From assembly GCA_041288095.1 (NCBI GenBank), contig JBGGMJ010000069.1, positions 1 to 25,414 on the forward strand: a stretch of DNA of 25,414 bases. Reading direction: 5' to 3'. The DNA comes from Myxococcota bacterium. Its GTDB lineage: Bacteria; Myxococcota; XYA12-FULL-58-9; JALHOP01. The stretch's first letter is position 1, and the number at the start of each line of letters is the position of its first letter. Under the pieces are notes generated by a model. It did not search any database and was not told the DNA's origin. It saw only the letters and a program-made list of their open reading frames with translations. Shown in pieces: positions 438 to 17,696 of this stretch. Both the position numbers and the translations under genes were made by a program.

Positions 438-2597
438 CTAGTGCGAAAGGGTCAAAGTGGCCATGAGGACGCGACCCAAAGCGGGGATATTCACGCCAAA
501 GGCCCCGGGCTCCGCGTACTGCGTGTTCAAGATGTTCTGAGCCAGCAGGCCGACGTCGACGCCCCAGTCCCCGACCGAGAGCTCGAGGGTGCGGATGTTC
601 GCGTCGAGGGTCATGTACTTCGCGACCAGACCAGCCGGCAGGTTGGTCGCCGGGTCGCTGAAAAAGGAGCGGCGCGCGCCGGCGCCGTGCGCGGTCAGCG
701 TGGCCTGCAGGTGGTACTGCGGCAACGTCGCGCCGACGGTGAGGTGGCCCTGCAGCTTCGGATAGCTCGGGAGGCGCCCGTCATTCTCGCCATAAATCAG
801 CGTGAAAAACGACGGCAGCGGATCCGGACCTTGCACCTTGCTGTGCTGGAACGACGCGTTGCCCTGCACGAAGAAGGGCGCCATGCGCAGCTCGCCGACC
901 AGCTCGCCGCCATAGGTCGTGCTCTGCGACAAATTGCGCGCTGTCTGCAATAGCGAAATGCGCACGTATTCGATGCGGTCGTCGACCACGGTGCGGAAGA
1001 CGTTGAGCTGGACGCTGAACAGCTCGGGCGCGGTGTAGGTGAGGGCCGCCTCGATGGTCGCCGCGGTCTGCGGCTTGAGGTCGGGGTTACCTTGCACGCC
1101 GCGGTTCGACACCGGCTGCGCGAAGAGCTGTGTCGGGGAAGGAGGCACGTACGAGGTCCCGTACAAGAGCTTGGCGGTGAGGTGCGGGATGACCTCGTAC
1201 GCCGACGCGAGGCGTACGCTAACGCGGTCATCCCACGCTTCGTTGTGGTCGTAGCGCACGTTGCCGGTGAGGCCGAGCTTCTCGATCGGGTAGATGACCG
1301 CTTGAGCGTACGTGCCCAGGTTGCCGTAACGGAAGCGGCGGCCGAGGGCACGCAAGGTCTTGTCGCCGACGTTGCCGCTGCCGTCGAGCTGCACGTCGTG
1401 GAGTGTGTCACCGCGGTCGAGGACGTCGAGATATTGAATGCCGACTAGGCCCAGGTGCGGCCCGAAAGCGTACGAAGCTTCGGTGCCGACGTCGTACGCC
1501 GACGAGCTGCGCCGGCGCTCGACGAATGAATCGGGCAAACCGACGTCGAGTCGCTCGGAGGCGAGGTTGCCGCCGTAATTGAGGGCCCCGTGCGTCTCGA
1601 GCAGGAGTCGGCCGCCGCGGATCTCCGCGCCGATCTTGTGATTGAGGCGCGTCAGCGTGTTCGCCATGCCGACGGTGGCGCCGTGGGTGAGGATACCATC
1701 GGCCGCGAACTCGGCCCCGTAGTCGACGCGTTGATGAGAGGCGAGAAACTGCAAGGTGCCGGCTTGCCCCAAGCCGAGGTCGCCGCTCGCAAACAACGAG
1801 ACAGGGCGCGCGATGTCGTTGCGGCTCTTCATGTCGCGGTATTGATTGATCAGCGGCGAAGACGGAGGCGCCGCGAGACCGGATCGGTCGATGTGCCAAG
1901 TCGAGGCCGCGAGCGTCAGGCGCGACGCCTTGCTCGTCCCGACGCCGCCGCTGACGTTGGCGAACGCCTGGGCGCCGTATAGGCCGCGATCGCGGACAAG
2001 GCCGCCGCTGCCCGAGGCGCTCACCAGATTTTCCGTCGGCTTGCGGGTGATGACGTTCACCACCGCCAAGAAGGCGTTGGCGCCATAAAGCGCGGAGCCC
2101 GGACCACGGATGATCTCGATCGCCTCGACCGCCTCCATCGGTATGAACTCGGGGCCCAAGAAGTTGCCGGCGAGCGTGTAAAAGGTCGCGGCCTGTCCGT
2201 CGATCATCACCTTGATGATGCGGCTCCACGAGTCGGGCCCGCCGGAGATGCCGCGCACACCGACGTTGCTCGCCACCAAGTCGTCGATGACGTAGAGACC
2301 CGGAACCGCTTTGAGCGCATCGGCGATCGACCGGTAGCCACGCGCCTGGATGACCGAGCGCGGTACCACCGTGATGATCGAGGGCGCCTCTGCTTGCGCT
2401 ACCTCGGATTTGGTCGCGGTGGTGACCACGAACTCGGACTCGAGCAGCTGGTAGAGGTCGCCGAGCTCGTCACCTGCCTGCGCTGTCGGATCGATCTCGT
2501 CGCTGAAGCTCGGCAGCGGAGCGTTATCCTGGGCGGACGCCGGTCGTCCGAGCGCTACGCCCAGCACGACCGACATCGCTGCCCAGGAATGCTTCAA
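438..2597 (-). CDS. TonB-dependent outer-membrane receptor (plug + beta-barrel)
   Basis: Signal peptide (..RPASA/QD), plug motifs VVTTATK..APSIITVV..GYRSIADALKAVPG and IEIIRGPGSALYGANAFLAVVNVIT, GNPDLKP, and C-terminal NILN..Y...GR. The TTG start overlaps the upstream stop (TTGA, 2594-2597). Confidence 0.92.
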   Translation of the reverse strand: MKHSWAAMSVVLGVALGRPASAQDNAPLPSFSDEIDPTAQAGDELGDLYQLLESEFVVTTATKSEVAQAEAPSIITVVPRSVIQARGYRSIADALKAVPGLYVIDDLVASNVGVRGISGGPDSWSRIIKVMIDGQAATFYTLAGNFLGPEFIPMEAVEAIEIIRGPGSALYGANAFLAVVNVITRKPTENLVSASGSGGLVRDRGLYGAQAFANVSGGVGTSKASRLTLAASTWHIDRSGLAAPPSSPLINQYRDMKSRNDIARPVSLFASGDLGLGQAGTLQFLASHQRVDYGAEFAADGILTHGATVGMANTLTRLNHKIGAEIRGGRLLLETHGALNYGGNLASERLDVGLPDSFVERRRSSSAYDVGTEASYAFGPHLGLVGIQYLDVLDRGDTLHDVQLDGSGNVGDKTLRALGRRFRYGNLGTYAQAVIYPIEKLGLTGNVRYDHNEAWDDRVSVRLASAYEVIPHLTAKLLYGTSYVPPSPTQLFAQPVSNRGVQGNPDLKPQTAATIEAALTYTAPELFSVQLNVFRTVVDDRIEYVRISLLQTARNLSQSTTYGGELVGELRMAPFFVQGNASFQHSKVQGPDPLPSFFTLIYGENDGRLPSYPKLQGHLTVGATLPQYHLQATLTAHGAGARRSFFSDPATNLPAGLVAKYMTLDANIRTLELSVGDWGVDVGLLAQNILNTQYAEPGAFGVNIPALGRVLMATLTLSH

Positions 2598-3850
2598 AAG
2601 TCGACGCCGGATTCCATCACGCGCAAGGTATCGAGCTGACCACTCGCATTGAAGCGGCGCTCGGCGAGATTCGACGGGAAGTCGCCGTTCTCGTCGTATT
2701 CGATCTCGGCTGTCAGACCCTCGAAATCGAGGTCTCCGCCATCGCGGACGATTTCCAGGGCGCGAGCAAACTCGACGGCCCCCGTTACCTGCTCGCCCGG
2801 TCCGTTGGCGATGAGCCGCAGCGCATCGCGAGCCTTGGTACCGTCGTATTCACCGGCCTTCTCGATGGCGAGAGCTGCCATGTAGACGGTGTTGACGATC
2901 GAGTTGAGCAGGTTGACGTTGGCGCCGGTCACCGTCGTGCCGCTGAAGGCCGTGAAGGCGTCGACGACCACCGCTTGTTGGGTGGGATCCGCGGGAACCG
3001 CACCGTAGGCGTAGACACCGTTCATCTTGGCGGCGCCGACGGCGGCGGCGAGCTCGGGGGTGCCGAGGATGACGCCGACGGTCAAGCGACCATCCCAGTC
3101 GGCTTTGTTCCAGGTGGTGAGCAAGGCAACCGCATCGGCGGCCGCGGCGTACAAGAAGATCACGTCCGGGTCGCTGGCGAACACCGCGTCGAGTTGCGCC
3201 TGAGCATTGAAGGTGCCGGGATTGGTGGAGTCGAAGGTGTAGGCGTGATTGACGGTCATCGTCCCGCCCTTGGCCGCGAAGGTCGACAAGAAGATTTCGC
3301 TCTGCTCGTTACCAGTCGCGAAGTTCAAGTGCAGCGCGGCCGCGGTGCGGGCGCCGGCGTCGTAGGCCGCGGCGGCGGCCCCGATGGCGCTGATGTAGGG
3401 CGATTCGAGACCGCGAAAGGCGAAGTCGTCGTCGTTGACGCTCGAGAGGGCCGCGGCGCCGGCGATCGGCGTAATCATCAGGCGCTGGTTGGCGCCGGCG
3501 ATCGGCGCGGCGGCAATGGCGGTATCGCTCAACCACGGCCCGATCCAGACTTGCGTGCCGTTGTCGACCAGGGTGTTGGCGACATCGGTGATGGGTTGGA
3601 CGCCATTGGTGCCCGAGGCCTCGTCATACTCGTCGAACACTAGGTCGTTGCCGAGGACGCCGCCGGCTTCATTGATCGTCTGCGCGCTGAACGCCACGGC
3701 GCTGTTTGCCAGCGGGTACAGGGTGGCGAACGTGCCCGTTTTCGGAACGATCGAAGCCAGGTGGAGCTCACCGCGCTCCTTTTTGTCGTCGCCACCGCAG
3801 GCCGCGATGGCGCACATGAGCACTGGAACCACGAAAGTTTTGGGCATCAT
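2594..3850 (-). CDS. Lipoprotein, type-I periplasmic binding protein (branched-chain amino acid/LivJ-like family), paralog B
   Basis: Lipobox IAAC, INEAGGVLG motif, IGPWLSD, DDDFAFR, and C-terminal DFEGLTAEIEYDENGD. 418 aa. Confidence 0.88.
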   Translation of the reverse strand: MMPKTFVVPVLMCAIAACGGDDKKERGELHLASIVPKTGTFATLYPLANSAVAFSAQTINEAGGVLGNDLVFDEYDEASGTNGVQPITDVANTLVDNGTQVWIGPWLSDTAIAAAPIAGANQRLMITPIAGAAALSSVNDDDFAFRGLESPYISAIGAAAAAYDAGARTAAALHLNFATGNEQSEIFLSTFAAKGGTMTVNHAYTFDSTNPGTFNAQAQLDAVFASDPDVIFLYAAAADAVALLTTWNKADWDGRLTVGVILGTPELAAAVGAAKMNGVYAYGAVPADPTQQAVVVDAFTAFSGTTVTGANVNLLNSIVNTVYMAALAIEKAGEYDGTKARDALRLIANGPGEQVTGAVEFARALEIVRDGGDLDFEGLTAEIEYDENGDFPSNLAERRFNASGQLDTLRVMESGVDF

Positions 3851-3886
3851 TGGAAATTCTCTCCGGGAACGAAGACAGACACACTA

Positions 3887-5143
3887 TTAGAAGTCGGCGC
3901 CTGGAACCAGCACGCGAACGACGTCGAGGCCACCGTTGGCGTTGAAACGACGCTCGCTGATGTTGCCGACGAAGTCGCCGCGTGCATCGAGCTCCAAGGG
4001 GGCCGACAGGCCAACGAAGTCGAGGTCTCCGCCTGAGCGGACGATGTCGACTGCTCGGCGATAGTCGACCGCCCCCATCACCGGCTCACCCGGAGCATTC
4101 GCGACTTCGCGCAAGACATCGCGGATCGCGGTGCCGTCGTTGACGCCCGCTCTCTCGATGGCGAGGGCGGCGAGGATAGTCGATTGCAAGGTCGAGTTGA
4201 CCACGGTCGTATTGACGTCGCCGAGGTCGAAGCCGTTCAATTCCTGGAACGCGCTGTTGATGGTCACCTGGTCGGCGGGAGCCGGCGCCGCGGCGGTGTA
4301 CGTGAGGGCATCAGCGATCTTGGGTCCGCCGACGGCGGCGGCGATGTCGGACGACGCGAGCACCGCGCCCAGGATCCACTGACCAGCCCAGTCCATCTTG
4401 TCCCAGGCGGTGAGCACCGCGACGGCGTCGGTCGGCGTACCGTAGAGAAAGATGACGTCGGGATTGCCGGCGAACACCGCGTCGAGGTGCGCCTGAGCCA
4501 CGAACGCGCTGGGGTTCGCGGTGTCGTAGTCGTATCCATGATTGACGAGCACAGTGCCACCGGCGGCGACGAACGTGTTGGCGAACGTATTGGCCTGGTC
4601 GGTAGAGACCGCGTTGTTCAAGTGCAAGACGGACGCCGTGGTGTGGCCGCCGGCATAGGCGACGCGGGCCGAGGCCACCGCCGCGGTGCTGACGACCTGG
4701 ATACCGCGAAAGACGAAGTCGTCGTCCGCGAGCGCGGACAGCTGCGAGGCGCCAGCGCTCGGCGCGATCAACAAGCGTTGGTTCGCGGCCGCGATGGGCG
4801 CCGCGGCGAGGGCGCTGTCGCTGGCTTGTGGTCCGACCCACACCTGGACACCCTGTGAGACGAGGTCGTTCGCGACGTCGGTGATCGGCACGACACCATT
4901 GGTGCCGGCGGCTTCGTCGCGCTCGTCGAACACCAGCTCCATCCCAAGAACGCCGCCTGCGTCATTGATCCATTTTTGCGCGAGACGCGCGCCACCTTCG
5001 AGCGTCTGATAGGCGCTCGAGAAGGCGCCGCTCTTGGGGAGAATCATGGCGATCGTGAGCTGACCGCGGGGAGCCTCGGTCTCGGTGCTTCCGCACGCCG
5101 CGATGGAGGAGAGTAGCAGTGCTGCAAGGAGGCCTTCGCGCAT
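3887..5143 (-). CDS. Lipoprotein, type-I periplasmic binding protein (LivJ-like family), paralog A
   Basis: The true start is the ATG at 5143 (MREGLLAALLLSSIAAC; alternative ATG 5152), not 5560. Lipobox IAAC, INDAGGVLG, DDDFVFR, DFVGLSAPLELDARGD. Collinear with paralog B and also 418 aa from 5143. Confidence 0.87.
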   Translation of the reverse strand: MREGLLAALLLSSIAACGSTETEAPRGQLTIAMILPKSGAFSSAYQTLEGGARLAQKWINDAGGVLGMELVFDERDEAAGTNGVVPITDVANDLVSQGVQVWVGPQASDSALAAAPIAAANQRLLIAPSAGASQLSALADDDFVFRGIQVVSTAAVASARVAYAGGHTTASVLHLNNAVSTDQANTFANTFVAAGGTVLVNHGYDYDTANPSAFVAQAHLDAVFAGNPDVIFLYGTPTDAVAVLTAWDKMDWAGQWILGAVLASSDIAAAVGGPKIADALTYTAAAPAPADQVTINSAFQELNGFDLGDVNTTVVNSTLQSTILAALAIERAGVNDGTAIRDVLREVANAPGEPVMGAVDYRRAVDIVRSGGDLDFVGLSAPLELDARGDFVGNISERRFNANGGLDVVRVLVPGADF

Positions 5144-5218
5144 GACATCCATTGCGGCACATTTTCGCGTCTGCCGTAGCAGTCGCGCAAGCCAATGTGG
5201 TAGTGGCCGCCGACGACC

Positions 5219-6058
5219 ATGCGCGCCGCCCGACACGCATTTGCGTACATCAGCCGCGGCGCCGCCTTGATCGCGCTCGCCCTCGTCGCGGCCGGCCCTT
5301 CGCCCGTGGCGGCGCAGGAGAACGGCGCGGGCCGCATCGTTTACTTCGACCCCGACGCGAACCACCAAGCCATCGTCAACATCGCGACGTGGTTCACCGA
5401 CTACTTGGCGAGCGCCTCCGTCGAGCTGGTTTTCCAGGCTGTCGAGAGCCGCGAGGCTTTCGAGCGTCTCCTCGCGGACCCCAAGACCCGTTTTGCCCTC
5501 GTGTCGTCGAGCTATGTCGCGACCGCGGACGCCAGGCTCGACCCGATCTTGGTCCCTCAAGTCGGAGGTGATCCGTTCTATTACAAGGTGCTCATCGACG
5601 TCGGCACCGGTGACGGACGCGAGCTGTCCGGAAAGAACCTTGCGGCTAGCGTCATCGCCAAGCCTGGCAGCAGCAATTTCAAGGAGCTGCTACAAGGACT
5701 AGCGGCCGGGGGTGTCCGCGTCGACGGAGTGCACGTCATCCCGGTAGCCAAGGACATCGACGCGCTGCTTGCGCTCTCGTTCGGCCAGGTCCAAGCCGCG
5801 CTGGTCACTCCCGAGAGCGTCGAGGTCTTGAAACGCATCAACCCCGGTGTGGCCGCCAAGTTTCGCGCCGTCTACCGGACCAGTCCGATTTTGCGGGCAC
5901 CGATGTGCGAAGTCGGTAAAAAGTCCAGCGCGCGAGAGCGCGCCAACTTGGTGAGTGCGCTACAGCGGATGTCGCAGAGCGATGACGGACGCAAGGCGAT
6001 GCGCACCATGGGCTTCGAGGGCTGGCTGCCCTTCCAACCGGAGATGCTGAAGCGATGA
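5219..6058 (+). CDS. Periplasmic type-II binding protein, PhnD/phosphonate-binding-like
   Basis: Signal peptide (..PVAA/QE), ELSGKNLA, DALLALSFGQVQAALV, and the C-terminal MSQSDDGRKAMRTMGFEGW pattern typical of PhnD-like proteins. Ligand not determinable. Confidence 0.72.
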   Translation: MRAARHAFAYISRGAALIALALVAAGPSPVAAQENGAGRIVYFDPDANHQAIVNIATWFTDYLASASVELVFQAVESREAFERLLADPKTRFALVSSSYVATADARLDPILVPQVGGDPFYYKVLIDVGTGDGRELSGKNLAASVIAKPGSSNFKELLQGLAAGGVRVDGVHVIPVAKDIDALLALSFGQVQAALVTPESVEVLKRINPGVAAKFRAVYRTSPILRAPMCEVGKKSSARERANLVSALQRMSQSDDGRKAMRTMGFEGWLPFQPEMLKR

Positions 6059-7038
6059 TGCGCATAGCGATCGTCATCATCGCCCTGGTCACGGGGTGTG
6101 TCGCGCCACGGGTGATCACGCCGGTGGCCCAAGGTCGCGCCGATCAGCCGCCGGTCGTGGTGATCCTGACGAGCTCGAACAACCGGCTCTACGAGGCGCC
6201 GATCACCGCCTTCCAAAGCCAGCTCGAAGGGGAGGCGACGGTTTACGCCGAGACCGTGACCGACCCGCGCGGCTTGGCCGAAGCCCTCCAAGTGGTGAAG
6301 CCGAGCTTGATCTTCGCGCTAGGCACGCAGGCAGCGATCTTCGCGCGACAGAAATTCCCCGAGGTGCCGCTGCTGTTCGCCATGGTGGTCAACCACCGGC
6401 GCTTGAAGGAGCTCCAGGCGCCGCAGGTCATGGGCGTCGCGCTCGAAGTGCCACCGGCTTCGGAGTTCACCCAGTTCAAGCTCGCGATGCCGAGCATGAA
6501 TCGTGTCCTCGTCTTGCACGCTACCGAGAACACTTCCGACGTCGTCGCCGGCGCCACCGAAGCGGCACGCAGCCTCGGCATCACGCTGGTCGCGGCGCCG
6601 GTACGCGACCTGGCCGAGCTGAAGACGCAGTACGCCCGCTATAGCAAACAAGTGGACGCCGTCTGGCTGCTCAACGATCCCGTGGTCATGAACCCGGCGG
6701 CCTTCGGCTGGCTGCGCGACGCCTCGTATCGCGACCGCGTGGCCCTGATTTCCTCGCTCTCCGACAAATTCGCCCGCGCCGGCGCCTTGATGTCCGTTTC
6801 CGTGGACTTAGGTTCCCTCGGTTTCCAGGCGAGCGCCATGGCGATGGGCGTTTTCAAGCAGCAACAAAGCCCCAGTGAAATCGGCATACAGCCGCCCATC
6901 GGCGCGCGTCTCGTCCTCAACATGGTGGTGGCACAGAAGCTCGGGCTGCAGGTCCCCGAGGAGGTGCTACCATTCATCAGCGAGGTCATCGTCTCCGAGG
7001 GTCCGGCGACACCACGCCCCGATGCCAACGATCGCTAG
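6055..7038 (+). CDS. Lipoprotein, ABC_sub_bind-like substrate-binding protein
   Basis: Lipobox VTGC, LIFALGTQAA, VPLLFAMV, VDAVWLLNDP, GALMSV, LVLNMVVAQKLGLQVP (the N..TA..LG..IP signature of this family). ATGA overlap with the upstream gene. Confidence 0.82.
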   Translation: MMRIAIVIIALVTGCVAPRVITPVAQGRADQPPVVVILTSSNNRLYEAPITAFQSQLEGEATVYAETVTDPRGLAEALQVVKPSLIFALGTQAAIFARQKFPEVPLLFAMVVNHRRLKELQAPQVMGVALEVPPASEFTQFKLAMPSMNRVLVLHATENTSDVVAGATEAARSLGITLVAAPVRDLAELKTQYARYSKQVDAVWLLNDPVVMNPAAFGWLRDASYRDRVALISSLSDKFARAGALMSVSVDLGSLGFQASAMAMGVFKQQQSPSEIGIQPPIGARLVLNMVVAQKLGLQVPEEVLPFISEVIVSEGPATPRPDANDR

Positions 7039-9124
7039 TCCCAACAGCCTCCGCTTCAAGCTCGTGCTGATGGTCATCAGCCTCGTCGTCGTGGTGGTCG
7101 CGCTCATCAGCGCCTACTTCCTGGTCAAACACCAAGGCGACCTGCGCGAAGCCATGGCGTCGCGCACCCAGGCGATGAAGACCGAGGTCGGCAAGAAGGG
7201 CATCGCCCTCGCAGGCAACGTCGCCATGGCGTCCGAGCGGGCCATCGCGGTGCTCGACTACCTCTTCCTCACCGAGGTCCTCACGACCACGATGAAGAAC
7301 GACGACGGCGTGCTCTACGGCATCGTCATGGACAACGAGCGGCGGGCCTTGGTGCATACCGACCCGGCGCTCGCCGGCACCATCCTCGACGCCGACAAGG
7401 ACAAGAGCGCGGCCGCCGCGGGTGACGCGGTCGCCCTGGAGCACGAAAAGGACGGCCAGCACTACCTCGAAGCCGTGGCGCCGATTCACGTCGGGGGTAA
7501 GCGTTGGGGCACCATACGCCTCGGCATGTCGCTCGAGCGCGTCGAGGCGGAGATCGCGAGCTACGAGCGCGAGGGCCAGCGGCAGATCACCAACAGCATC
7601 GTCGCGGTGCTCCTCGTCGCTCTCCTCTTGATCATCGTGGCGTCGATTGTCGGCGCCACCGTCGCGACCCAGGTGGTGAAGCCGCTGCGACTCTTGCTCG
7701 CCGGCGTCAACCGCATCCGCGAAGGCAACTTCGACGTCTCGGTCGATGTGCGTGGCAGCGCCGAGTTCGTGAATCTCGCGGTCGGCTTCAACGCCATGCG
7801 CGAGACCATCCGCGAGCGCGATGCACGCCTGCGCCAGAACGTCGAAGACCTGCGCATCGCCTTCGAGAAGGCCGAAGAGGCCAGTCGTTTGAAGAGTCAG
7901 TTCCTCGCCAACATCTCGCACGAGCTGCGCACGCCGCTGAACGCCATCGTCAACGTGCCTGTGACCTTACTCTCCGAGTACTCCGTTTTCGCGGTCTGGA
8001 CATGTGCCGCCTGCGGCGGTGTTTTCCAGAGCGACGACCCCACGGGCAAGGAGACTCCCGAGGCGTGTCCGGACTGTGGCAAGCCGGCGCTGTCGCGCGG
8101 CGAGAAGGTCTTCTTGGTCGGTGATCCGGGGCAGCACCGGCATTTCTTGAATCGCTTGCGGCAGCAGGCGCGCCATCTCTTGAACGTGGTCAACGACCTG
8201 CTCGATTTCTCGAAGGTCGAGGCCAAGCGCATGCAGCTCAACCTCGCGGAGGTGGACGTGGCCGCGGTCCTGCGTGACCTTGCCGAGACGGTCGACGTGC
8301 TCGCCCACGAGAAGGGCCTCGAGATCGTGTACACGTCCGAGCCGGGCGCGACCTTGGTGGCCGATCCGCTCCGCCTCACGCAGGTGCTCATGAACCTGGT
8401 CGGCAACGCCATCAAGTTCACCCCGAAGGGTGGGCGCATCGACGTGCGTGTCGAGCGCCAAGGCGACAAGCTGCGCTTCAGCGTCGCCGACAGCGGCATC
8501 GGTATCCCCAAGGACAAGCACGCCATCGTCTTCGAGAGCTTCCGTCAGGTCGACGGCAGTCATACGCGAGCGCACGGAGGCACCGGTCTCGGTCTCGCCA
8601 TCGCCAAACAGCTCGTCGAGATGCACAAGGGCCGCATGTGGCTCGAGAGCGAGGTCGGAAAAGGCAGCACCTTCGTTTTCGAGATCCCGGTGTCCGCCGA
8701 TGACGCCGTCGCCGATGACGATACGGTGTCGGCAAACGCGGACGCGGGCGGAGCGAAGGTGCGGGTCATGGTCATCGACGACAACGAGGTGCACCTGGAG
8801 GTGGCGCGCATCGTCCTCGAGAAGCGTGGCTTCGTGACCGAGCTGGTATCGAAGCCAGCGGAGGTCCTGGAGCGCGTGAAGGGTAGCCCGCCCGACCTCA
8901 TTATCCTCGACGTCATGATGCCGGAGGTCAGCGGCGTTGCTATCCTGAAGCGGTTGAAGGAGAACCCTGACACCGCCACCATCCCGGTGTTCGTCGCCTC
9001 TGCATACGATGCTCATCGGGAGCGGGTGGAGGAGCTGGGAGCGATTTGGTTACCCAAGCCATGGAACGCGCAGACCGTTGCACAGTTGTTCTCCACCGCA
9101 GTCTCTGAGATTGAGGCTTCGTAA
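7022..9124 (+). CDS. Membrane-bound hybrid sensor histidine kinase (TM-periplasmic sensor-TM-HAMP-HisKA with Cys4 insert-HATPase-REC)
   Basis: Likely start ATG 7022 (700 aa). Two hydrophobic helices, HAMP, H-box FLANISHELRTPLNAI, N-box NLVGNAIKFT, G1 DSGIGI, G2 GGTGLGLAI, and receiver VIDDN/LDVMMP/KP. Confidence 0.95.
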   Translation: MPTIASPNSLRFKLVLMVISLVVVVVALISAYFLVKHQGDLREAMASRTQAMKTEVGKKGIALAGNVAMASERAIAVLDYLFLTEVLTTTMKNDDGVLYGIVMDNERRALVHTDPALAGTILDADKDKSAAAAGDAVALEHEKDGQHYLEAVAPIHVGGKRWGTIRLGMSLERVEAEIASYEREGQRQITNSIVAVLLVALLLIIVASIVGATVATQVVKPLRLLLAGVNRIREGNFDVSVDVRGSAEFVNLAVGFNAMRETIRERDARLRQNVEDLRIAFEKAEEASRLKSQFLANISHELRTPLNAIVNVPVTLLSEYSVFAVWTCAACGGVFQSDDPTGKETPEACPDCGKPALSRGEKVFLVGDPGQHRHFLNRLRQQARHLLNVVNDLLDFSKVEAKRMQLNLAEVDVAAVLRDLAETVDVLAHEKGLEIVYTSEPGATLVADPLRLTQVLMNLVGNAIKFTPKGGRIDVRVERQGDKLRFSVADSGIGIPKDKHAIVFESFRQVDGSHTRAHGGTGLGLAIAKQLVEMHKGRMWLESEVGKGSTFVFEIPVSADDAVADDDTVSANADAGGAKVRVMVIDDNEVHLEVARIVLEKRGFVTELVSKPAEVLERVKGSPPDLIILDVMMPEVSGVAILKRLKENPDTATIPVFVASAYDAHRERVEELGAIWLPKPWNAQTVAQLFSTAVSEIEAS

Positions 9125-9588
9125 TGGCACTTTCCCCGTTCAAATCGCCGCAAGGCACCACGGCCCGCAGCGGTAACGAGCGGCGCCGCATCCTCTACGT
9201 CGAAGACGATGACGTGATCTGGGAGGTCGCCGAGTTCGCGTTGCGCAAGGACTACGAGATCACGCGCGCCCGCAACGCCCGCGAGACCTTCGATCTGCTT
9301 TCGCGGAACAAGTACGACCTCATCTTGATGGACATCCAGCTCGCCGGCTCGGACCTCGACGGCATTGCCATCACTCGGCTGCTGAAGGGCCGCTATGACG
9401 GCACCACCCCCCAATACGCCGTTGGTGTGAGCTCGCACGGGGCGCCCATCATTTTCGTGACGGCCTACACCTCGCTCTACAAGAAGGACGATTTGGAGCG
9501 TGCCGGCGGCGACGAGCGCATCTCGAAACCCGTGGATTTTACGCGGTTGTCGCTGGCGATGACGCGCCTCTTGGTGAGGGATCTCTAG
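9124..9588 (+). CDS. Single-domain response regulator (CheY/DivK-like receiver)
   Basis: ILYVEDD, LILMDIQL, FVTAY and SKP motifs, with no output domain. TAATG stop/start overlap with the kinase. Confidence 0.92.
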   Translation: MALSPFKSPQGTTARSGNERRRILYVEDDDVIWEVAEFALRKDYEITRARNARETFDLLSRNKYDLILMDIQLAGSDLDGIAITRLLKGRYDGTTPQYAVGVSSHGAPIIFVTAYTSLYKKDDLERAGGDERISKPVDFTRLSLAMTRLLVRDL

Positions 9589-9721: not shown

Positions 9722-10141
9722 ATGGCATTGGCCAAGCGTGGACGTAAGGGACAAGAGGAACAAGAAGACCGCGAGCTCACCAAGAAGGATCTTGAGGGGC
9801 TGAAGAAGGCGCTGCTCGAAGAGCGCGGCCGCGTGCTTTCCCGTCTCGACAGCCACGTCACGCAAGCCACCGAAGACCGCGACAACCTCGCCGACGAAAT
9901 GGACATGGCGACGCGGCACTCCGACCAGGCCTACCTGCTGCGGCTCGCGGACAAGGAGCACAAGCTCCTCGCCGAGATCGATCACGCGCTCGCCAAGTTC
10001 GAGCACGGCACTTTCGGCGTCTGCGAAGGCACCGGCGAGCCCATCGAGCTGCGCCGTCTCGAGATTCGCCCGTGGACGCGCTACTCGCTCGAATATAAGG
10101 AGCAGCTCGAGCGCGAAAAGGGCAACCGCGCCGGTCGCTAA
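9722..10141 (+). CDS. dksA: DksA/TraR family RNA-polymerase-binding transcription factor
   Basis: Coiled coil with DxxDxA tip (DEMDMA) and IDHALAKFEHGTFGVCEGTGEPIELRRLEIRP. AGGAG RBS at 9711-9715. Confidence 0.88.
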   Translation: MALAKRGRKGQEEQEDRELTKKDLEGLKKALLEERGRVLSRLDSHVTQATEDRDNLADEMDMATRHSDQAYLLRLADKEHKLLAEIDHALAKFEHGTFGVCEGTGEPIELRRLEIRPWTRYSLEYKEQLEREKGNRAGR

Positions 10142-11925: not shown

Positions 11926-13818
11926 TCAGGCGAACAGCGGGGCGTCCGTCGGCGGCCGGGCGGGCCCTGGAATTCCCACGGCGTCAGCGGCCTCGGCCAC
12001 GGTCCGAACCTCGACGGAATCGACGCCGAAGAGGTCGGTGGCGGCCTTGAGCCAACCGATGCGGGCCGCTTGGAAGGTCGTATCCGGCGTGAAGTAGACA
12101 TTATGCGCGCGGTAGTAAATGCGCAGCGCCTTCTCCATGCCGAGGCCCTGGACCACGCGCGCTTGCGAGGTGCGGTTCACGCCACCTTCGGCGAGCAAAT
12201 AGAAGAAGTTGTTGGCAATGCCCGAGTTCCAGTGGACGCCGCCGTTGTCGGCGCTGCCCGTGTAACGGGTGCGGTAGTTGTCGCGCGACGACTTGTCCTT
12301 CGTCGGGTCGTTCATGTAGCGGATGGCGTCGTCGGGAATGTTCGGGGTGTAGCTGTCCTCGAAGAGCAGATAGTCGCGCAGGACGCCCGCGCCGCGCGCG
12401 CCGCGCAGAAACCAGTTGAAACCGGCGGCGCCGATGACGTCGGAGCCCGCTTCGTTCAGCGCGCCGGACTCGCCGCGATAGATGAGGCGGCTCGTTGCGT
12501 CGGTGAGACCGTGGGTGGCTTCGTGACCGCCGGTGTCGGAGTCGGTTTGCGACAGGTTCTCGCCGCCGTCACCGTCGCCGTAGTTCATGGTCTCGCCGTC
12601 CCAGAAGGCGTTGGCGTAGTTGTTGTAGACGTGGACGTTCGAGAGGAGGCGCTTGCCGCGGTCGTCGAGTGAGTTGCGGCCGAAGATCTCGCGCAGATAC
12701 TTGAGGTACTGCACGGCGGCGTATTGCGCGTCGACGGCATCGCGAACGCGCGCGTCGTCACCGGGGCCGGCCCAGCGGTTGTCGTTGTCCGTGAAAACGG
12801 TGTTGCGTGAGCCCGAGCCGCCGGCGCCGTTGTGGGCGTCGCGCGTCTCGGCGTCGTTGTGGGTCGGATCGCGCAGGACGTAGCCGTCGCCGTCGCGCGT
12901 CGTGGTGAGCGGGACGTTGCCGCTGAAGATCGAGTTGCCGGTGCCCTCGGCGGGCACGTCGCGTCCGGTCCGGGTGGCGGCGATGCCCTGGTTGCGGGCC
13001 TCGCTCACCTGGCGCGTCGCCTGCTCGTGGCGGGCCCAGGTGCGGTCGCTGAAAGTGAGAGGTAAGAGCTCACCGCTGTGCGCGTCGACGAAGTAGTGAG
13101 TGCGTCGCGGCTTGCCGTCCGCGAAGGCGGATAGTGCGATATAGTGGGCGAGGCGGAACTCGCCATCGTCGAGCTTGACGACCACGAGGCTAGGGCCGTG
13201 CGTGCGCTCGGGGATCGCGGCGAAGGCGCTGACCGCGGTAACCATCGACGAGTCCTCGCTCATGCGCGGCTTGGTATCGAGCGAGAGGTCGTTGGGGAGG
13301 GTGCCGCTGGTGACGTCGCGCACGGTGCCGTCTTGCCCCAAATGAGTGACCACTTCGCTGCCGAAGATGGGGACGCCGTCGTAGGTGCGAGCGAGGCGGA
13401 CGTTGGCGCGGCCGAGCTCGTCGCGGAAGGCGAGGCGTGGAGCAAAGCCGTGCGCCGAGCCGATGACGCGGGACTGCAGCGCCGTGAGGCTCGCCATGGT
13501 GGCGGCGACGGCTTCGCGCTCGGACATGCGGACGTAGTCGAAGTTGGGGCCGAAGATTTCGCTGGCGGAAAGGACGGCGAGGGAGCGACCGAGGTTGTCG
13601 GTCGCGGCGACGTTGACCGCGGACGGCCGAGCAGCGAGCTCCGCTTGGCGGATGGCCGAGGACCGAACGCCGATCACCGAGGGCCGATCGCCGTTTGCCG
13701 AGGACCGAACACCGATCACCGAGGGCCGATCACCGATTGCCGATGACCGACTACCGATGGCCGAGTGCCGAACACCGACTGCCGACAGCCGATTGCCGAT
13801 CCGACTCACGTCCGTCAT
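11926..13818 (-). CDS. M4 (thermolysin-like) zinc metalloprotease, copy 4
   Basis: FTP/PepSY-like propeptide (DELGRANVRL, YFVDAHSG), NAFW, HEATH, GALNEAGSD and GGVHWNSG. No hydrophobic signal peptide; the N-terminus is encoded by a 7-bp repeat. Confidence 0.93.
   Translation of the reverse strand: MTDVSRIGNRLSAVGVRHSAIGSRSSAIGDRPSVIGVRSSANGDRPSVIGVRSSAIRQAELAARPSAVNVAATDNLGRSLAVLSASEIFGPNFDYVRMSEREAVAATMASLTALQSRVIGSAHGFAPRLAFRDELGRANVRLARTYDGVPIFGSEVVTHLGQDGTVRDVTSGTLPNDLSLDTKPRMSEDSSMVTAVSAFAAIPERTHGPSLVVVKLDDGEFRLAHYIALSAFADGKPRRTHYFVDAHSGELLPLTFSDRTWARHEQATRQVSEARNQGIAATRTGRDVPAEGTGNSIFSGNVPLTTTRDGDGYVLRDPTHNDAETRDAHNGAGGSGSRNTVFTDNDNRWAGPGDDARVRDAVDAQYAAVQYLKYLREIFGRNSLDDRGKRLLSNVHVYNNYANAFWDGETMNYGDGDGGENLSQTDSDTGGHEATHGLTDATSRLIYRGESGALNEAGSDVIGAAGFNWFLRGARGAGVLRDYLLFEDSYTPNIPDDAIRYMNDPTKDKSSRDNYRTRYTGSADNGGVHWNSGIANNFFYLLAEGGVNRTSQARVVQGLGMEKALRIYYRAHNVYFTPDTTFQAARIGWLKAATDLFGVDSVEVRTVAEAADAVGIPGPARPPTDAPLFA
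13656..13800. repeat. Degenerate 7-bp tandem repeat (CCGANNN)x20 inside the 5' end of protease copy 4
   Basis: Twenty units in exact 7-bp register from 13656 to 13795 (one is CCGT-), plus a partial unit. Includes a 42-bp higher-order duplication (13656-13697 vs 13698-13739, 3 mismatches). Confidence 0.92.
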
Positions 13819-13822
13819 GGCG

Positions 13823-15706
13823 TTAGCTCACCAATCCTGCGGTCACGGTTTGCGCTTCGATGCCCACCGCGCTCGCCGCCGCCCGCACCGTGCGTAGCTC
13901 GGCCGAATCGCGGCCGTACAAGTCTTCAGCCGCGCGCTCCCACGCCGCGCGGGCCTGCGCGAAGGTGGTGTTGGGGGTGAAGTAGACGGTGTTGGCGCGG
14001 TAGTAGATGCGCAGCGCCTTCTCCATGCCGACGCCCTGAGCGATGCGCTGCCCCGAGGTGGGGTTCGCGCCGCCGTTGGCGAGCAGGTAGAAGAAGTTGT
14101 TCGGGACGCCCGAGTTGATGTGGACGCCGCCGCGGTCTTGTTCGCCGCGGTACATGGTGCTCACGTGATCGCGCGAGTACATCTCGCTGGTCGGGTTGCG
14201 GCGGTCGCGCGAGGGCGCATCCATGTAGCGCAAAGCGTCGCCGCTGATGCTGGGCGTGATCGCGCTCTCGCCGATCATGTAGTCGGTGGCGATGCCCTGA
14301 TCGCGGCGGCCACGCAGGAACCAGGACAGACCAGCGCTGCCCATGATGTCGGCGCCGGCCTCGTTCAAGGCTCCGGACTCACCGCGGTAGATCAAGCGGC
14401 TGGTGTTGGAGATGAGGCCATGCGTGATCTCGTGGCCGGCGATGTCGGGGTCGACCATCGGCCCGGCGACGCGACCGTCGCCGTCGCCGTAATTGACGCT
14501 CGTGCCGTCCCAATACGCGTTCACCAGGTTCCGGCGAACGTGCACGTTCGAGATGATGCGCGCGCCACGGTCGTCGATCGAGTTACGGCCGAACATCTCA
14601 CGCAGGTACCGGAGGTAGCTGACCGCCGAGTAGTGGGCGTCGATGCCGGCGCGTTGCCGCTCGTTGTCACCTGCCTCACCCCAGATGTTGTTGGTGTCGG
14701 TGATCGGCTGACCACCGTTGCCACGGCCGCCGAAGATGCCACCGAGTCCGCCAAAGCCACCGAACATACCCTGGGCGTTGCCGGCGTCGCGGGTTTCGCT
14801 GCCACTCGCCGGGTCGCGCAAGATGTAGCCGTTCATGCTGCCGCGCGAGGTCGCGAGCGGGACGACACCCGAGTAGATCGAGTTGCCATGGCCGGCCGGG
14901 ATGCTGGGCGCGGCGGCTTGCGGACGCAGCGAGAAGCCGGTGGTCGCGCGGCTGCCCAGGTGCGTGCGCGTGCGCTCGATCTCGTCTTCGTCGAGGAAAC
15001 CGCCGGCTTCGTCGAAGCCGAGCGGCAACACCTGGCCGGTCTGCGCGTCGACGAATACGTTGGTGCGGCGCGGCGGCAGATCCGCCGGCTCGATGGTGGC
15101 GGTCACGTGGTAGGCCAACCGGTATTCGCCGTCGTCACCCTGGACGATGGCGAGCTCGGCTTTGCCGCTCTGGGTCGGCGTCGCGCCGAGGGACGCGATA
15201 GCGGTCGCTTTGGCGGCGTCCGCCGAGACGCGCGCGTTCATGTCGAGCGGCAGACGCGCGGGGATGGCGGCGCCCGTCATCGATGCGACGCGACCTTGCT
15301 CGTCGAGATGAGCGATGGCTTGGGCACCGAAGATAGGCACGCCGTTGTAGGTGCGATCCATGCGCACGTGGCTGCGGCCGAGCTCGTCGCGAAACGCCTG
15401 CGACGGCACGAAGTCGTGCGCGTTGCCGACGAAGCCGGTGCTCGCGACGTTGCCGCGCGCGGCTGCGAGCGCGGCGGTGGTGACATTGACCGCCTCGGTC
15501 TCGCTCATGCGGGCGTAGCGAAACTGCGCACCGAACGCGAGAGCGCTCTTCTGTGGCGCCGCCGGTCCGCTGAAGCGGGCAGCCGGGGGCAGCTCGAAGG
15601 GCAGGGGCGTGCCGTCGAGAGCAGAGGGCGTCATGTCGACGACGACCGCTGGTTGGTGCGGGGCGATGGGCGAAGTGCGAACGGGGCCGATGGGATCGCT
15701 AGCCAT
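13823..15706 (-). CDS. M4 (thermolysin-like) zinc metalloprotease, copy 3
   Basis: Start ATG 15706 with GAGGA RBS (alternative TTG 15721). NAYW, HEITH, GALNEAGAD and GGVHINSG. No signal peptide. Confidence 0.93.
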   Translation of the reverse strand: MASDPIGPVRTSPIAPHQPAVVVDMTPSALDGTPLPFELPPAARFSGPAAPQKSALAFGAQFRYARMSETEAVNVTTAALAAARGNVASTGFVGNAHDFVPSQAFRDELGRSHVRMDRTYNGVPIFGAQAIAHLDEQGRVASMTGAAIPARLPLDMNARVSADAAKATAIASLGATPTQSGKAELAIVQGDDGEYRLAYHVTATIEPADLPPRRTNVFVDAQTGQVLPLGFDEAGGFLDEDEIERTRTHLGSRATTGFSLRPQAAAPSIPAGHGNSIYSGVVPLATSRGSMNGYILRDPASGSETRDAGNAQGMFGGFGGLGGIFGGRGNGGQPITDTNNIWGEAGDNERQRAGIDAHYSAVSYLRYLREMFGRNSIDDRGARIISNVHVRRNLVNAYWDGTSVNYGDGDGRVAGPMVDPDIAGHEITHGLISNTSRLIYRGESGALNEAGADIMGSAGLSWFLRGRRDQGIATDYMIGESAITPSISGDALRYMDAPSRDRRNPTSEMYSRDHVSTMYRGEQDRGGVHINSGVPNNFFYLLANGGANPTSGQRIAQGVGMEKALRIYYRANTVYFTPNTTFAQARAAWERAAEDLYGRDSAELRTVRAAASAVGIEAQTVTAGLVS

Positions 15707-15717
15707 GAGAATTTTCC

Positions 15718-17616
15718 TCAACCAACAAGAGTGGCGCCGCCTGGGGCGGCTTGGGGTGCTTCGATGCCGACCGCGGTGGCGGCATCACGAACGGTCGCAA
15801 GCTCGGCGGAATCGGCGCCGTAGAGATCGGCGGCCGCCTTCTCCCAACCAACCCGCGCCTGCGCGAAGGTGGTGCTCGGCGTGAAGTAGACCGTGTGCGC
15901 GCGGTAGTAGATGCGCAGCGCCTTCTCCATGCCGATGCCCTTCTCGATCTTGAGCTTCGAGGTCGAGTTCTCGCCGCCGGCCGCGAGCAGGAAGAAGAAG
16001 TTGTTGGCGATGCCGGAGTTGATGTGGACGCCGCCGTTGTCGCCGCCGCCCTTGTAGAGATCTTTGTAGTTGTCGCGCGAGTAGTTGGTGTTGCCGCGGG
16101 TTGCCTTGTCGCGCGTCGGATTGTCCATGTAGCGCCAGGCGTCGCCTTCCTTGCCGGGCGTGAACGAGTCCTCGCCGAGCAAGTAGTCGCGGTCGATGCC
16201 CTGATCTTTCATGCCGCGCATGAACCAGGAGAGACCGGCGCTGCCGATGATGTCCGAGCCGGCTTCGTTCAAGGCGCCGGACTCGTTGCGGTAGATGAGC
16301 CCGCTGGTGTGCTGCGTGAGGCCGTGCGTGATCTCATGGCCGCCGACGTCGCGGTCGACCATGGGCCCGGCGACGCGACCGTCACCGTCGCCGTAGTTCA
16401 TGGTGTCGCCGTCCCAGTAGGCGTTCACGAAGCTCTCGCGGACGTGGACGTTCGAGAGCAGCTGTTGCCCCTTACCGTCGATCGAGTCGCGCGCGAATAC
16501 CTGCTTGAGCAGGCCGAGGAACTGCACGGCGGCGTAGTGGGCGTCGATGCCGGCGCGTTGGCGGGCGTCGTCTCCGGCCTCGCCCCACTTGTTGTTGTCG
16601 TCGCCGAAGACCTTGTTCTCGGCGCCAGTGCCGCCCTCGCCGTTCATGGCGTCGCGAGTCTCGGTCTTGGCGGAGCCCGGGTCGCGCATCACGAACTTCC
16701 CGGAGGCGTCCTTGGTGGTGGCCAGCGGGACGACGCCAGAGTAGACCGAGCTGCCGGTCCCGTCCGCGATGACGGGCACCGGCTGCGGCGTTGGATTGCC
16801 GATGCCCGGGCCGCGCGGCAGTGATTTGCGTACCGCTTCGACGTGCTCCGGATCCGCGTAGCCGTGCAGCTCGTCGAAGGAGAGCGGCAGCATGGCGCCG
16901 CTGTGCGCATCGACGAAGTAGTTCATCTTGCTGGCGCCGGCCTCGTGACGCGCGAAGAGCACCACGTGATGGGCGAGGTGATAGGCGCCACTGTCGTCGG
17001 CGATGATCACGAGGCGCGAGCCGGCGGGCCGGGTCGGCTGTTTGCCGAAGGCGGCGAGCGCGGTCGCGAGCGCCGTGGCTTCGGAGACTGTCGGCTTGGT
17101 GTCGACGGGGAGGCGCGCCGGGAGCTTGGTGCCGGTGATGTCGGCGACCTTGTCCTCGGCTCCAAGATGGGAAACGACCTGCTCGCCGTAGATCGGCACG
17201 CCGTCATAGACGCGGTTCAAGCGGACGTTGACGCGGCCGAGCTCGTCCTTGAAGGCGAGCGCCGGCGCGAACCCGTGGGGCGATGAGGCGAAGCCGGCGC
17301 CGATGATCTTTGCCTTGACGGCGTTGAGGCTCGCGACGGTGGCGGCGAAGGCGCGCTCGTCGGTGAGCCCGACCACTTTGAACTGCGGGCCGAAGGCCTT
17401 GATGCCGGCGAGAGCCGAGATGGCGTCACCGACGCTCGAGGATTGCGTGGAGGCACCAGCGGACAGTGGCCGTGGGCGGATGAGCGACGCCGAGAGATCG
17501 AGAACGGGGGCGTCGGGAGCCTTGGCGGCTTTCGCGGACAGCGTGCCGCGGGGGGTGAAGCACGAGTCGGGCGCGAGCTTGGTGAAAACGGACACGAGGC
17601 TGCGGATGTCGTTCAT
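15718..17616 (-). CDS. M4 (thermolysin-like) zinc metalloprotease, copy 2
   Basis: Propeptide DELGRVNVRL and YFVDAHSG, then NAYW, HEITH, GALNEAGSD and GGVHINSG. No signal peptide. Confidence 0.93.
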   Translation of the reverse strand: MNDIRSLVSVFTKLAPDSCFTPRGTLSAKAAKAPDAPVLDLSASLIRPRPLSAGASTQSSSVGDAISALAGIKAFGPQFKVVGLTDERAFAATVASLNAVKAKIIGAGFASSPHGFAPALAFKDELGRVNVRLNRVYDGVPIYGEQVVSHLGAEDKVADITGTKLPARLPVDTKPTVSEATALATALAAFGKQPTRPAGSRLVIIADDSGAYHLAHHVVLFARHEAGASKMNYFVDAHSGAMLPLSFDELHGYADPEHVEAVRKSLPRGPGIGNPTPQPVPVIADGTGSSVYSGVVPLATTKDASGKFVMRDPGSAKTETRDAMNGEGGTGAENKVFGDDNNKWGEAGDDARQRAGIDAHYAAVQFLGLLKQVFARDSIDGKGQQLLSNVHVRESFVNAYWDGDTMNYGDGDGRVAGPMVDRDVGGHEITHGLTQHTSGLIYRNESGALNEAGSDIIGSAGLSWFMRGMKDQGIDRDYLLGEDSFTPGKEGDAWRYMDNPTRDKATRGNTNYSRDNYKDLYKGGGDNGGVHINSGIANNFFFLLAAGGENSTSKLKIEKGIGMEKALRIYYRAHTVYFTPSTTFAQARVGWEKAAADLYGADSAELATVRDAATAVGIEAPQAAPGGATLVG

Positions 17617-17634
17617 GGCGCTTGGACTCGGGTG

Positions 17635-17689
17635 TGAAAAGAACGGAAAGAAGAGAAGGCGCGCCGCGTGGTGGGCACGGCGCGCCTTC
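17635..17689 (-). terminator. Intrinsic terminator-like hairpin after protease copy 1
   Basis: Perfect 12-bp stem GAAGGCGCGCCG (17655-17666) / CGGCGCGCCTTC (17678-17689), followed on the minus strand by TCTTCTTTCCGTTCTTTT. Confidence 0.7.
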
Positions 17690-17696
17690 AGCGTTG

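Follow-up and report, generated by a model that had tools for sequence, protein, structure and literature searches.

The stretch of DNA analysed here, called the window in the following, comprises 25,414 nt of contig JBGGMJ010000069.1 from a Myxococcota bacterium (GCA_041288095.1), and coordinates without a locus prefix are positions in this window. It contains an operon in which two genes for solute-binding proteins are followed by the genes for a hybrid sensor histidine kinase, P0001, and for a stand-alone receiver (Table 1). In P0001, an insert with four cysteines is located in the helical hairpin of the dimerization and histidine phosphotransfer (DHp) domain. The protein represents a real, conserved variant of the HisKA kinases, which apparently has been undescribed so far. 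The kinase gene is a single open frame ending at 9124 with two candidate starts, GTG at 6875 or ATG at 7022. The latter was preferred since the same Met begins the orthologues in the loci L011 and L012, and the residues of P0001 are numbered from it. In Pfam, HisKA (PF00512, 53.7 bits vs. a cut-off of 26.9), HATPase_c (PF02518, 118 bits vs. 26.4) and a fused Response_reg domain (65 bits vs. 30.2) were identified, the last with its DD, D, S and K positions legible in the translation.

Table 1. Features of the kinase operon and of two insert-bearing paralogues encoded elsewhere in the same genome.
Feature	Position	Strand	Basis or contig
Periplasmic solute-binding protein gene, Phosphonate-bd type, first of the operon	5219-6058	+	PF12974, E 2e-13
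Second solute-binding protein gene, ABC_sub_bind type	6055-7038	+	PF04392, E 2.5e-19
Kinase gene (P0001, 700 aa), hybrid sensor histidine kinase	7022-9124	+	Pfam
sCache_3_2 periplasmic sensor domain	7175-7561	+	PF17203, E 2.2e-12
HAMP domain	7661-7816	+	PF00672, E 1.4e-10
DHp helix alpha1 with H-box	7838-7981	+	First HisKA stretch; HK853 helix 1 alignment
Codon of phospho-acceptor His300, H-box SHELRTP	7919-7921	+	Read from sequence; H29 invariant in alignment A1
Family-specific N-x-P (N311, P313), H+11 and H+13	7952-7960	+	136/136 insert-bearing DHps
Cys4 insert, ~45 aa (residues 321-366), in place of the short alpha1-alpha2 turn	7982-8119	+	Gap in HK853 alignment
Knuckle 1, CAAC (C328, C331)	8003-8014	+	C57, C60 invariant in the 107-row A1
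Variable acidic linker between the knuckles	8015-8065	+	Comparison of 134 relatives
Knuckle 2, CPDC (C349, C352)	8066-8077	+	C78, C81 invariant in A1
DHp helix alpha2	8120-8236	+	Second HisKA stretch; HK853 helix 2 alignment
HATPase_c catalytic domain	8363-8692	+	PF02518, E 3.6e-34
Fused C-terminal receiver domain	8765-9076	+	PF00072, E 8.6e-18
Stand-alone receiver gene, 154 aa, likely cognate partner	9124-9588	+	PF00072, E 7.1e-15
Active-looking sCache-HAMP kinase with predicted ribbon	L020:4251-5948		G000:C158
Pseudokinase with predicted ribbon	L020:5951-7660		G000:C158

The HisKA match of P0001 is broken into two stretches by the insert. In the alignment with Thermotoga maritima HK853 (PDB 3dge), helices 1 and 2 correspond to residues 10-45 and 102-141, respectively, of a 142-aa query. 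This leaves 56 residues between the aligned helices in P0001 vs. 11 in HK853, an excess of about 45, and a short loop was present at this place in every solved kinase matched. On account of these 56 vs. 11 residues and of the split HisKA match, P0001 is regarded as a variant HisKA kinase and not as a typical member. Its two cysteine knuckles read W-x-CxxCG and CPxCG, with 17 residues between C331 and C349. A first-pass annotation, made from the letters of the sequence, had already read both motifs and this gap exactly as they appear in the translation. Its claim of a Cys4 module within the DHp hairpin was borne out, with a length of about 45 aa rather than roughly 40, and the conservation of the cysteines in homologs, which it had named beforehand as one of the points at which the claim could fail, was found in 132 of the 134 relatives with a long spacing described below.

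Relatives were collected by a word-seeded search with residues 275-420 and with phmmer, which was run exhaustively against 1.84 billion cluster representatives. In both searches, many kinases match over all 142 query residues, and the insert is present in 65 of the 120 matches listed from the word-seeded search. The distance from the H-box to helix 2 was surveyed in 250 proteins with 301 H-boxes and fell into two classes, a long one of 86-103 residues (n = 134) and a short one of 43-47 residues (n = 62); the other 105 H-boxes had no match to the helix-2 motif, or a spacing beyond both classes. Two CxxC pairs are present in 132/134 of the long-spacing DHps vs. any CxxC in 0/62 of the short-spacing ones. 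The first CxxC of the long-spacing DHps always lies 29 residues past the H-box Ser, and extra cysteines occur in three of them. The two exceptions are P0015, with CPDD at the second knuckle, and P0213, in which CPAPSC gives a CxxxxC and all four cysteines are retained. In a MAFFT alignment (A1) of the DHp and catalytic domains of the window's kinase with 106 insert-bearing proteins of at most 900 aa, from which P0015, P0213 and longer proteins were excluded, the four cysteines, the catalytic His and the ATPase-box residues are invariant in all 107 rows. The latter are located at N191, D219, G221, G223, G249, G251 and G253, and fit the Asn, Asp-x-Gly-x-Gly and Gly-x-Gly-x-Gly boxes.

Around the cysteines, conservation in the 134 relatives is selective. 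Phe or Tyr is found seven residues after the first Cys (C1+7) in 131/134 and Pro follows the third Cys in 118/134, while Trp at C1-2 is shared by 60/134 only and Gly after the first CxxC by 51/134 only. The linker between the knuckles, with a length of 13-30 residues and rich in E, D, A, P and G, has a mean net charge of -4.4 and is negative in 98% of the rows; the knuckle spacing ranges from 17 to 34 residues. Conserved hydrophobic core positions combined with a variable acidic linker are what a folded metal module carrying an unconstrained loop would show, as the insert is predicted to be.

A further family-specific feature has been identified in helix 1, where Asn at H+11 and Pro at H+13 are present in 136/136 insert-bearing DHps and in 0/62 insert-free ones, which have Gly at H+11. 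In the work on EnvZ and on HK853-RR468 (Skerker 2008, Casino 2009), H+11 is reported to be among the helix-1 positions that determine partner specificity. If so, a residue invariant at H+11 across many paralogues is unusual and would mean that the docking face has been remodelled in the clade. Mutual information with average product correction (134 rows) gave the pairs T315-L379, Y320-L365, T327-V334 and G333-D351, which are compatible with a hairpin (helix-helix and knuckle contacts). They were given no weight, because clade markers such as W326 dominate the top of the list. A single-sequence search with residues 314-374 recovered the query alone among 21 candidates, since word seeding fails on an insert of such variability.

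No Pfam or NCBIfam model reaches its curated threshold over the insert. Sub-threshold matches were obtained for Zn_ribbon_8 (PF09723, E 0.0021, 18.5 bits vs. 34.4), FmdB (TIGR02605, E 6.8e-5, 22.9 bits vs. 31.3) and a rubrerythrin-like model (NF033497, E 4.4e-5, 23.1 bits vs. a cut-off of 32). In the PDB, a sequence search with the insert gave matches at the level of the knuckles only, to RNA polymerase subunit P (E 0.042), rubrerythrin (0.15), ValRS (0.16) and rubredoxin (0.9), and no solved chain was found that spans the insert. The top PDB match, a designed C2H2 finger protein, was rejected as spurious, only a run ending in CPxCGK being matched. In the ESM Atlas model of P0001 (pTM 0.40, pLDDT 0.74), residues 318-368, a stretch of about 50 residues, are nearest to the zinc-ribbon modules Zn_Ribbon_TF, A2L, FmdB Zn_ribbon_8 and the class I tRNA-synthetase insert, with template modelling (TM) scores by query of 0.55-0.66. 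In the same kind of structure comparison, the DHp region matches ordinary HisKA domains over 75-78 of 121 residues, and zinc ribbons separately.

A true rubredoxin was taken to have its knuckles at a constant distance of about 29 residues, together with a conserved aromatic core. For the insert, this assignment is unsupported because of the variable knuckle spacing and an acidic, sequence-variable linker lacking a conserved aromatic core, and the Pfam rubredoxin model (PF00301) gave no match to P0001 at E <= 0.01. These observations argue for a generic Cys4 zinc ribbon, as predicted from the sequence, rather than a true rubredoxin. The first-pass annotation had likened the insert to rubredoxins and zinc ribbons alike; the nearest matches are indeed knuckles of zinc-ribbon or rubredoxin type, all of them sub-threshold, while its likeness to a true rubredoxin did not stand. 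The metal, the fold, the position of the ribbon relative to a docked receiver and any role in partner choice are inferred. A description of a metal module in the DHp turn was not found in open-access PMC and bioRxiv, and subscription papers could hold one. The remark made at the outset, that no characterised kinase with such an architecture was known, agrees with this result and with the negative results from Pfam, NCBIfam and the solved chains.

For the evolution of the family, a tree was calculated with IQ-TREE (quick mode) from the 190 residues after helix 2, thus without the insert or the DHp domain. It contains 135 rows with the insert and 61 without it, after one sequence of each kind had been dropped as too short. 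On this ATPase-domain tree, a single change of state separates the insert-bearing from the insert-free proteins (SH-aLRT 83). The pattern is compatible with a single origin of the insert and is no proof of one, which stays unproven because the insert-free rows were picked by similarity to the query. By hand tally, at least six sensor architectures occur among the 65 insert-bearing proteins listed, with or without a fused receiver: sCache+HAMP in 21, HAMP alone in 4, 7TMR-DISM in 25, Reg_prop/Y_Y_Y in 6, PAS in 2, HisKA_7TM in 2, and no detected sensor domain in 5. From this diversity and the single change on the tree, it follows that the ribbon is tied to the phosphotransfer core rather than to a particular input. 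An origin as an intein or mobile element was rejected, since no such motifs were found and the insert looks old by the single change on the tree. One protein of 1433 aa (P0121), in which the query matched two stretches, consists of two complete 7TMR-DISM sensor-kinase units in series on one polypeptide, with two 7TMR-DISMED2, two 7TM and two HATPase_c matches.

The distribution was determined by a genome search with the 142-aa query at E <= 1e-12, in which the best 10 candidates per genome were scored, so that the counts are lower bounds. For the phylum of the window, 401 genomes were searched and at least 34 gave matches, corresponding to at least 28 of 316 high-quality genomes and at least 20 of 154 genera. 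The occurrence is patchy by family, with at least 21/172 genomes in f17 and 0/67 in f21, each from the best 10 candidates per genome, and by the same count the highest copy number in one genome is at least seven. In the phylum of an Echinicola genome and in that of an actinomycete metagenome-assembled genome (MAG), the query gave no match in the genomes searched (0/151 each). By their source names, the insert-bearing records belong to Myxococcota, Myxococcales, Polyangiales or 'Deltaproteobacteria' MAGs, with the exception of two named 'uncultured Bdellovibrionales'. These two records, L011 and L013, encode kinases 92% and 55% identical to that of the window, and a record with an 83% identical kinase is titled Myxococcota. 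The Bdellovibrionales label looks like a mislabel, because the L011 genome shares the genus of the window by the genome search. A genome search with the single protein reached three close relatives.

The genome of the window (G000) contains three insert-bearing genes, the other two of which are arranged in tandem on contig C158 (L020). While the first of these encodes an active-looking kinase, the second encodes a pseudokinase in which Gln replaces the phospho-acceptor His, no HisKA match was obtained and the degenerate ATPase domain matches HATPase_c with 33 bits only. All four cysteines are kept in this protein (CxxC...CPxC). The pair of kinase and pseudokinase was found again in another genome from this genus (G030/G404), and the tandem on C158 may form a kinase-pseudokinase heterodimer. 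Since the ribbon is kept where catalysis has been lost, it must have a role for which catalysis is not required.

The stand-alone receiver encoded downstream of P0001 (9124-9588) was used to search the surroundings of insert-bearing kinases at 20 loci, taken from 16 genomes. Directly downstream and on the same strand, a near full-length homologue with 38-55% identity was identified in 12/20 loci; in 1/20 the receiver gene is convergent, and 1/20 lies at a contig edge. In five genomes in which every candidate was scored, 16 of the 21 members of the receiver subfamily are located no more than about 6.5 kb from a kinase with the insert, and such a receiver is present near 13 of the 24 insert-bearing kinases. 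The orthologue in L012 (P0002), a kinase with 83% identity, has no fused receiver but has the stand-alone one. The subfamily is tight, with 102 clusters at E <= 1e-10 among 178 candidates, and in the records its members are called response regulators and nothing more, with Myxococcota or Deltaproteobacteria MAGs as their source. The proteins (P0254-P0355; L021-L038) have a length of about 150-185 aa, a signature of their own and an insert of 14-17 residues, which we take to be in the alpha3-beta4 loop by our reading of the CheY fold. In some cases, members are fused to PilZ, and other fusions were found with HDOD-SpoIIE (L020:9983-11968, minus strand) and, from a motif only, with a Ser/Thr-kinase-like N-terminus (L021:8607-10013, minus strand). 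The genomic linkage supports a dedicated kinase-receiver channel and lends indirect support to the proposal of the first-pass annotation that the insert might be a partner-specificity module.

A complex was also predicted from two copies of the DHp-ribbon region, two Zn and the 9124-9588 receiver. The ipSAE was 0.39 (0.39, 0.45 and 0.38 in the runs), while the best of three controls reached 0.01; in the same job the partner had a pLDDT of at least 78, and the runs agreed in at least 78% of the contacts, which was classified as 'weak support'. In the calibration, the mark was reached by 116/157 solved complexes and by 2/215 mismatched pairs, and at scores of up to 0.60 by 18/157 solved complexes together with both mismatches. 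No contacts were returned, and no conclusion was drawn from the prediction, since kinase-receiver complexes have been solved and a pass may be memory.

The alpha1-alpha2 loop forms the end of the DHp four-helix bundle that is farthest from the membrane, and in the HK853-RR468 structure the receiver reportedly docks just below the histidine. The most plausible, though still rather tentative, reading of the data is that a constitutive Zn(Cys)4 ribbon caps the DHp tip, holds the hairpin in place and forms part of a remodelled surface for receiver docking. The two CxxC knuckles would lie on short beta-hairpins, with a floppy acidic loop between them, and would replace the alpha1-alpha2 turn, binding one structural Zn2+ per chain. 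The ribbon would then fix the geometry of the hairpin and enlarge the surface just below the phospho-histidine, where the receiver would dock, and might in this way help to define a private phosphotransfer channel from the kinase clade to its dedicated subfamily of receivers of about 160 aa, represented here by 9124-9588. According to section 18 of PMC6798134, DHp hairpin loops are normally short and their handedness decides between cis and trans autophosphorylation, so that a 45-aa module at this loop is placed to matter.

Several observations weigh against a ribbon at the docking surface. A receiver of the subfamily is absent from 6/20 loci, and 11 of the 24 insert-bearing kinases in the five genomes have none nearby. 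By our reading, the alpha3-beta4 insert of the receiver faces away from the usual contact with the DHp domain. Cognate kinase and receiver families generally duplicate together, and the linkage does not show a contact between ribbon and receiver, because co-descent of a cognate pair would give the same result. As to the module itself, every zinc-ribbon profile match lies below its curated cut-off, TM scores over about 50 residues mean little, and sequence cannot separate Zn from Fe.

It is possible, if not very probable, that the ribbon is a pure scaffold, which stabilises the hairpin or the dimer, or sets the handedness of the loop, with neither partner contact nor sensing. Cys4 ribbons are structural for the most part, conservation in the insert is seen at the cysteines and in the core but not in the loop, and the ribbon is kept in a pseudokinase that would still need to dimerise. 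The setting of cis or trans autophosphorylation by the loop geometry, as given in the section of PMC6798134 cited above, would also fit a scaffold. Left unexplained by a scaffold are the invariance of H+11 and H+13 on the docking face and the tight linkage to one receiver subfamily, with both of which plain co-descent is compatible.

A thiol or zinc redox switch, in which oxidants or electrophiles would oxidise the Cys4 site, Zn would leave and the tip would unfold with a shift in kinase, phosphatase or transfer activity, is considered unlikely. A second, cytoplasmic input of this sort had been proposed in the first-pass annotation. Cys4 zinc sites can switch by redox, as in Hsp33 and RsrA, and the predicted site is adjacent to the surface used for phosphotransfer. 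Histidine kinases are also known to be regulated by way of cytoplasmic cysteines, namely RegB through Cys265 in the excerpt of PMC9147068 and SrrB through Cys464/Cys501 in the excerpt of PMC8199190. However, the module occurs behind at least six sensor types, each with its own input, which fits a structural part of the core better than one additional signal common to all of them, and the operon contains no genes for redox partners. The narrower proposal of a zinc-thiolate switch within the phosphotransfer domain, by which oxidation or loss of Zn would gate the transfer from this myxobacterial clade to its dedicated receivers, is decidedly doubtful.

It is quite improbable that the ribbon instead serves as the docking site for a third macromolecule other than the receiver, which could be a nucleic acid, an inhibitor or a partner for heterodimerization like the pseudokinase encoded next to a ribbon kinase. 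Binding of proteins or nucleic acids is common among zinc ribbons, and the recurrence of the ribbon-bearing tandem in G030/G404 would be in line with a heterodimer partner, while the acidic loop permits a basic protein partner, though it speaks against a nucleic acid. The receiver aside, however, no conserved third gene was identified in the 20 sampled neighbourhoods. A rubredoxin-like Fe(Cys)4 centre for electron transfer or for iron or oxygen sensing is very improbable indeed, since the rubredoxin-type knuckles of P0001 and the weak matches to NF033497 (E 4.4e-5), rubrerythrin (E 0.15) and rubredoxin (E 0.9) are opposed by the knuckle spacing of 17-34 residues, the acidic and variable linker, the low shares of the Gly (51/134) and the Trp (60/134), and the missing match to the Pfam rubredoxin model at E <= 0.01.

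The genes of the kinase operon are tightly packed. The stop of the first solute-binding protein gene overlaps the start of the second by 4 nt, the second overlaps the kinase start at 7022, and the receiver gene starts at the last base of the kinase stop codon (1-nt overlap). The order of two solute-binding protein genes, kinase and receiver is conserved in L011, L012 and L013. No gene for an ABC permease or ATPase adjoins the two solute-binding protein genes (5219-7038), the products of which may assist the sCache kinase as co-sensors. The receiver gene is directly followed by a gene for a DksA/TraR-type C4 zinc-finger protein of an ordinary family (9722-10141); a tie of this gene to the ribbon was rejected, since by Pfam it belongs to that separate family. 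On the minus strand, four genes in tandem (11926-19568) code for thermolysin-family (M4) metallopeptidases of about 630 aa each, with FTP propeptide motifs. A further group on the minus strand (438-5173), which is divergent from the kinase operon, consists of a gene for a TonB-dependent receptor followed by two genes for Peripla_BP_6 binding proteins of the branched-chain amino-acid type.

The DHp hairpin is the best-studied determinant of receiver choice and of cis or trans autophosphorylation. A predicted ribbon at this place in well over a hundred kinases, with a receiver subfamily of its own, would be a natural experiment in the rebuilding of pathway insulation, in organisms with very many two-component systems. 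If the metal site were redox- or zinc-responsive, it would represent a new class of input site. If the zinc-thiolate switch were true, a signal input would exist inside the DHp domain independent of the N-terminal sensors, giving a new kind of insulation or gating of two-component pathways.

Among known systems, cytoplasmic cysteine or metal sites inside a kinase, which could modulate its activity, are described for RegB, SrrB and WalK, the last with a Zn site in its PAS domain (excerpt of PMC8199190), and in this respect these kinases resemble P0001. In the excerpts cited, the site is one Cys, a disulfide pair or a PAS site, whereas none of these kinases has a folded Cys4 module in the DHp turn, and no homology is implied. 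For RetS and GacS, the excerpt of PMC8498467 describes an interaction of pseudokinase and kinase that runs through the DHp domain. The active-looking kinase and its dead paralogue, which are encoded in tandem on C158, can be likened to this pair, with the difference that both C158 partners carry the predicted ribbon. The closest solved relatives are the HK853-type HisKA/HATPase_c kinases (PDB 3dge/2c2a; also 7z8n), which share the H-box, the DHp helices and the ATPase domain; they differ from P0001 in the distance between the helices (11 residues in HK853 vs. 56) and in the end of helix 1, which contains Gly in canonical kinases vs. N-x-P in the insert-bearing clade. In the FmdB/Zn_ribbon_8 proteins (PF09723, TIGR02605), two CxxC knuckles about 20 residues apart are found as in P0001, which scores below the threshold of these models. 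In the class I aminoacyl-tRNA synthetases, like ValRS (PDB 1gax), a ribbon is likewise inserted within a larger domain. Unlike the ribbons of FmdB and of the synthetases, the one of P0001, for which metal binding is predicted, has the helical hairpin of a signalling domain as its host.

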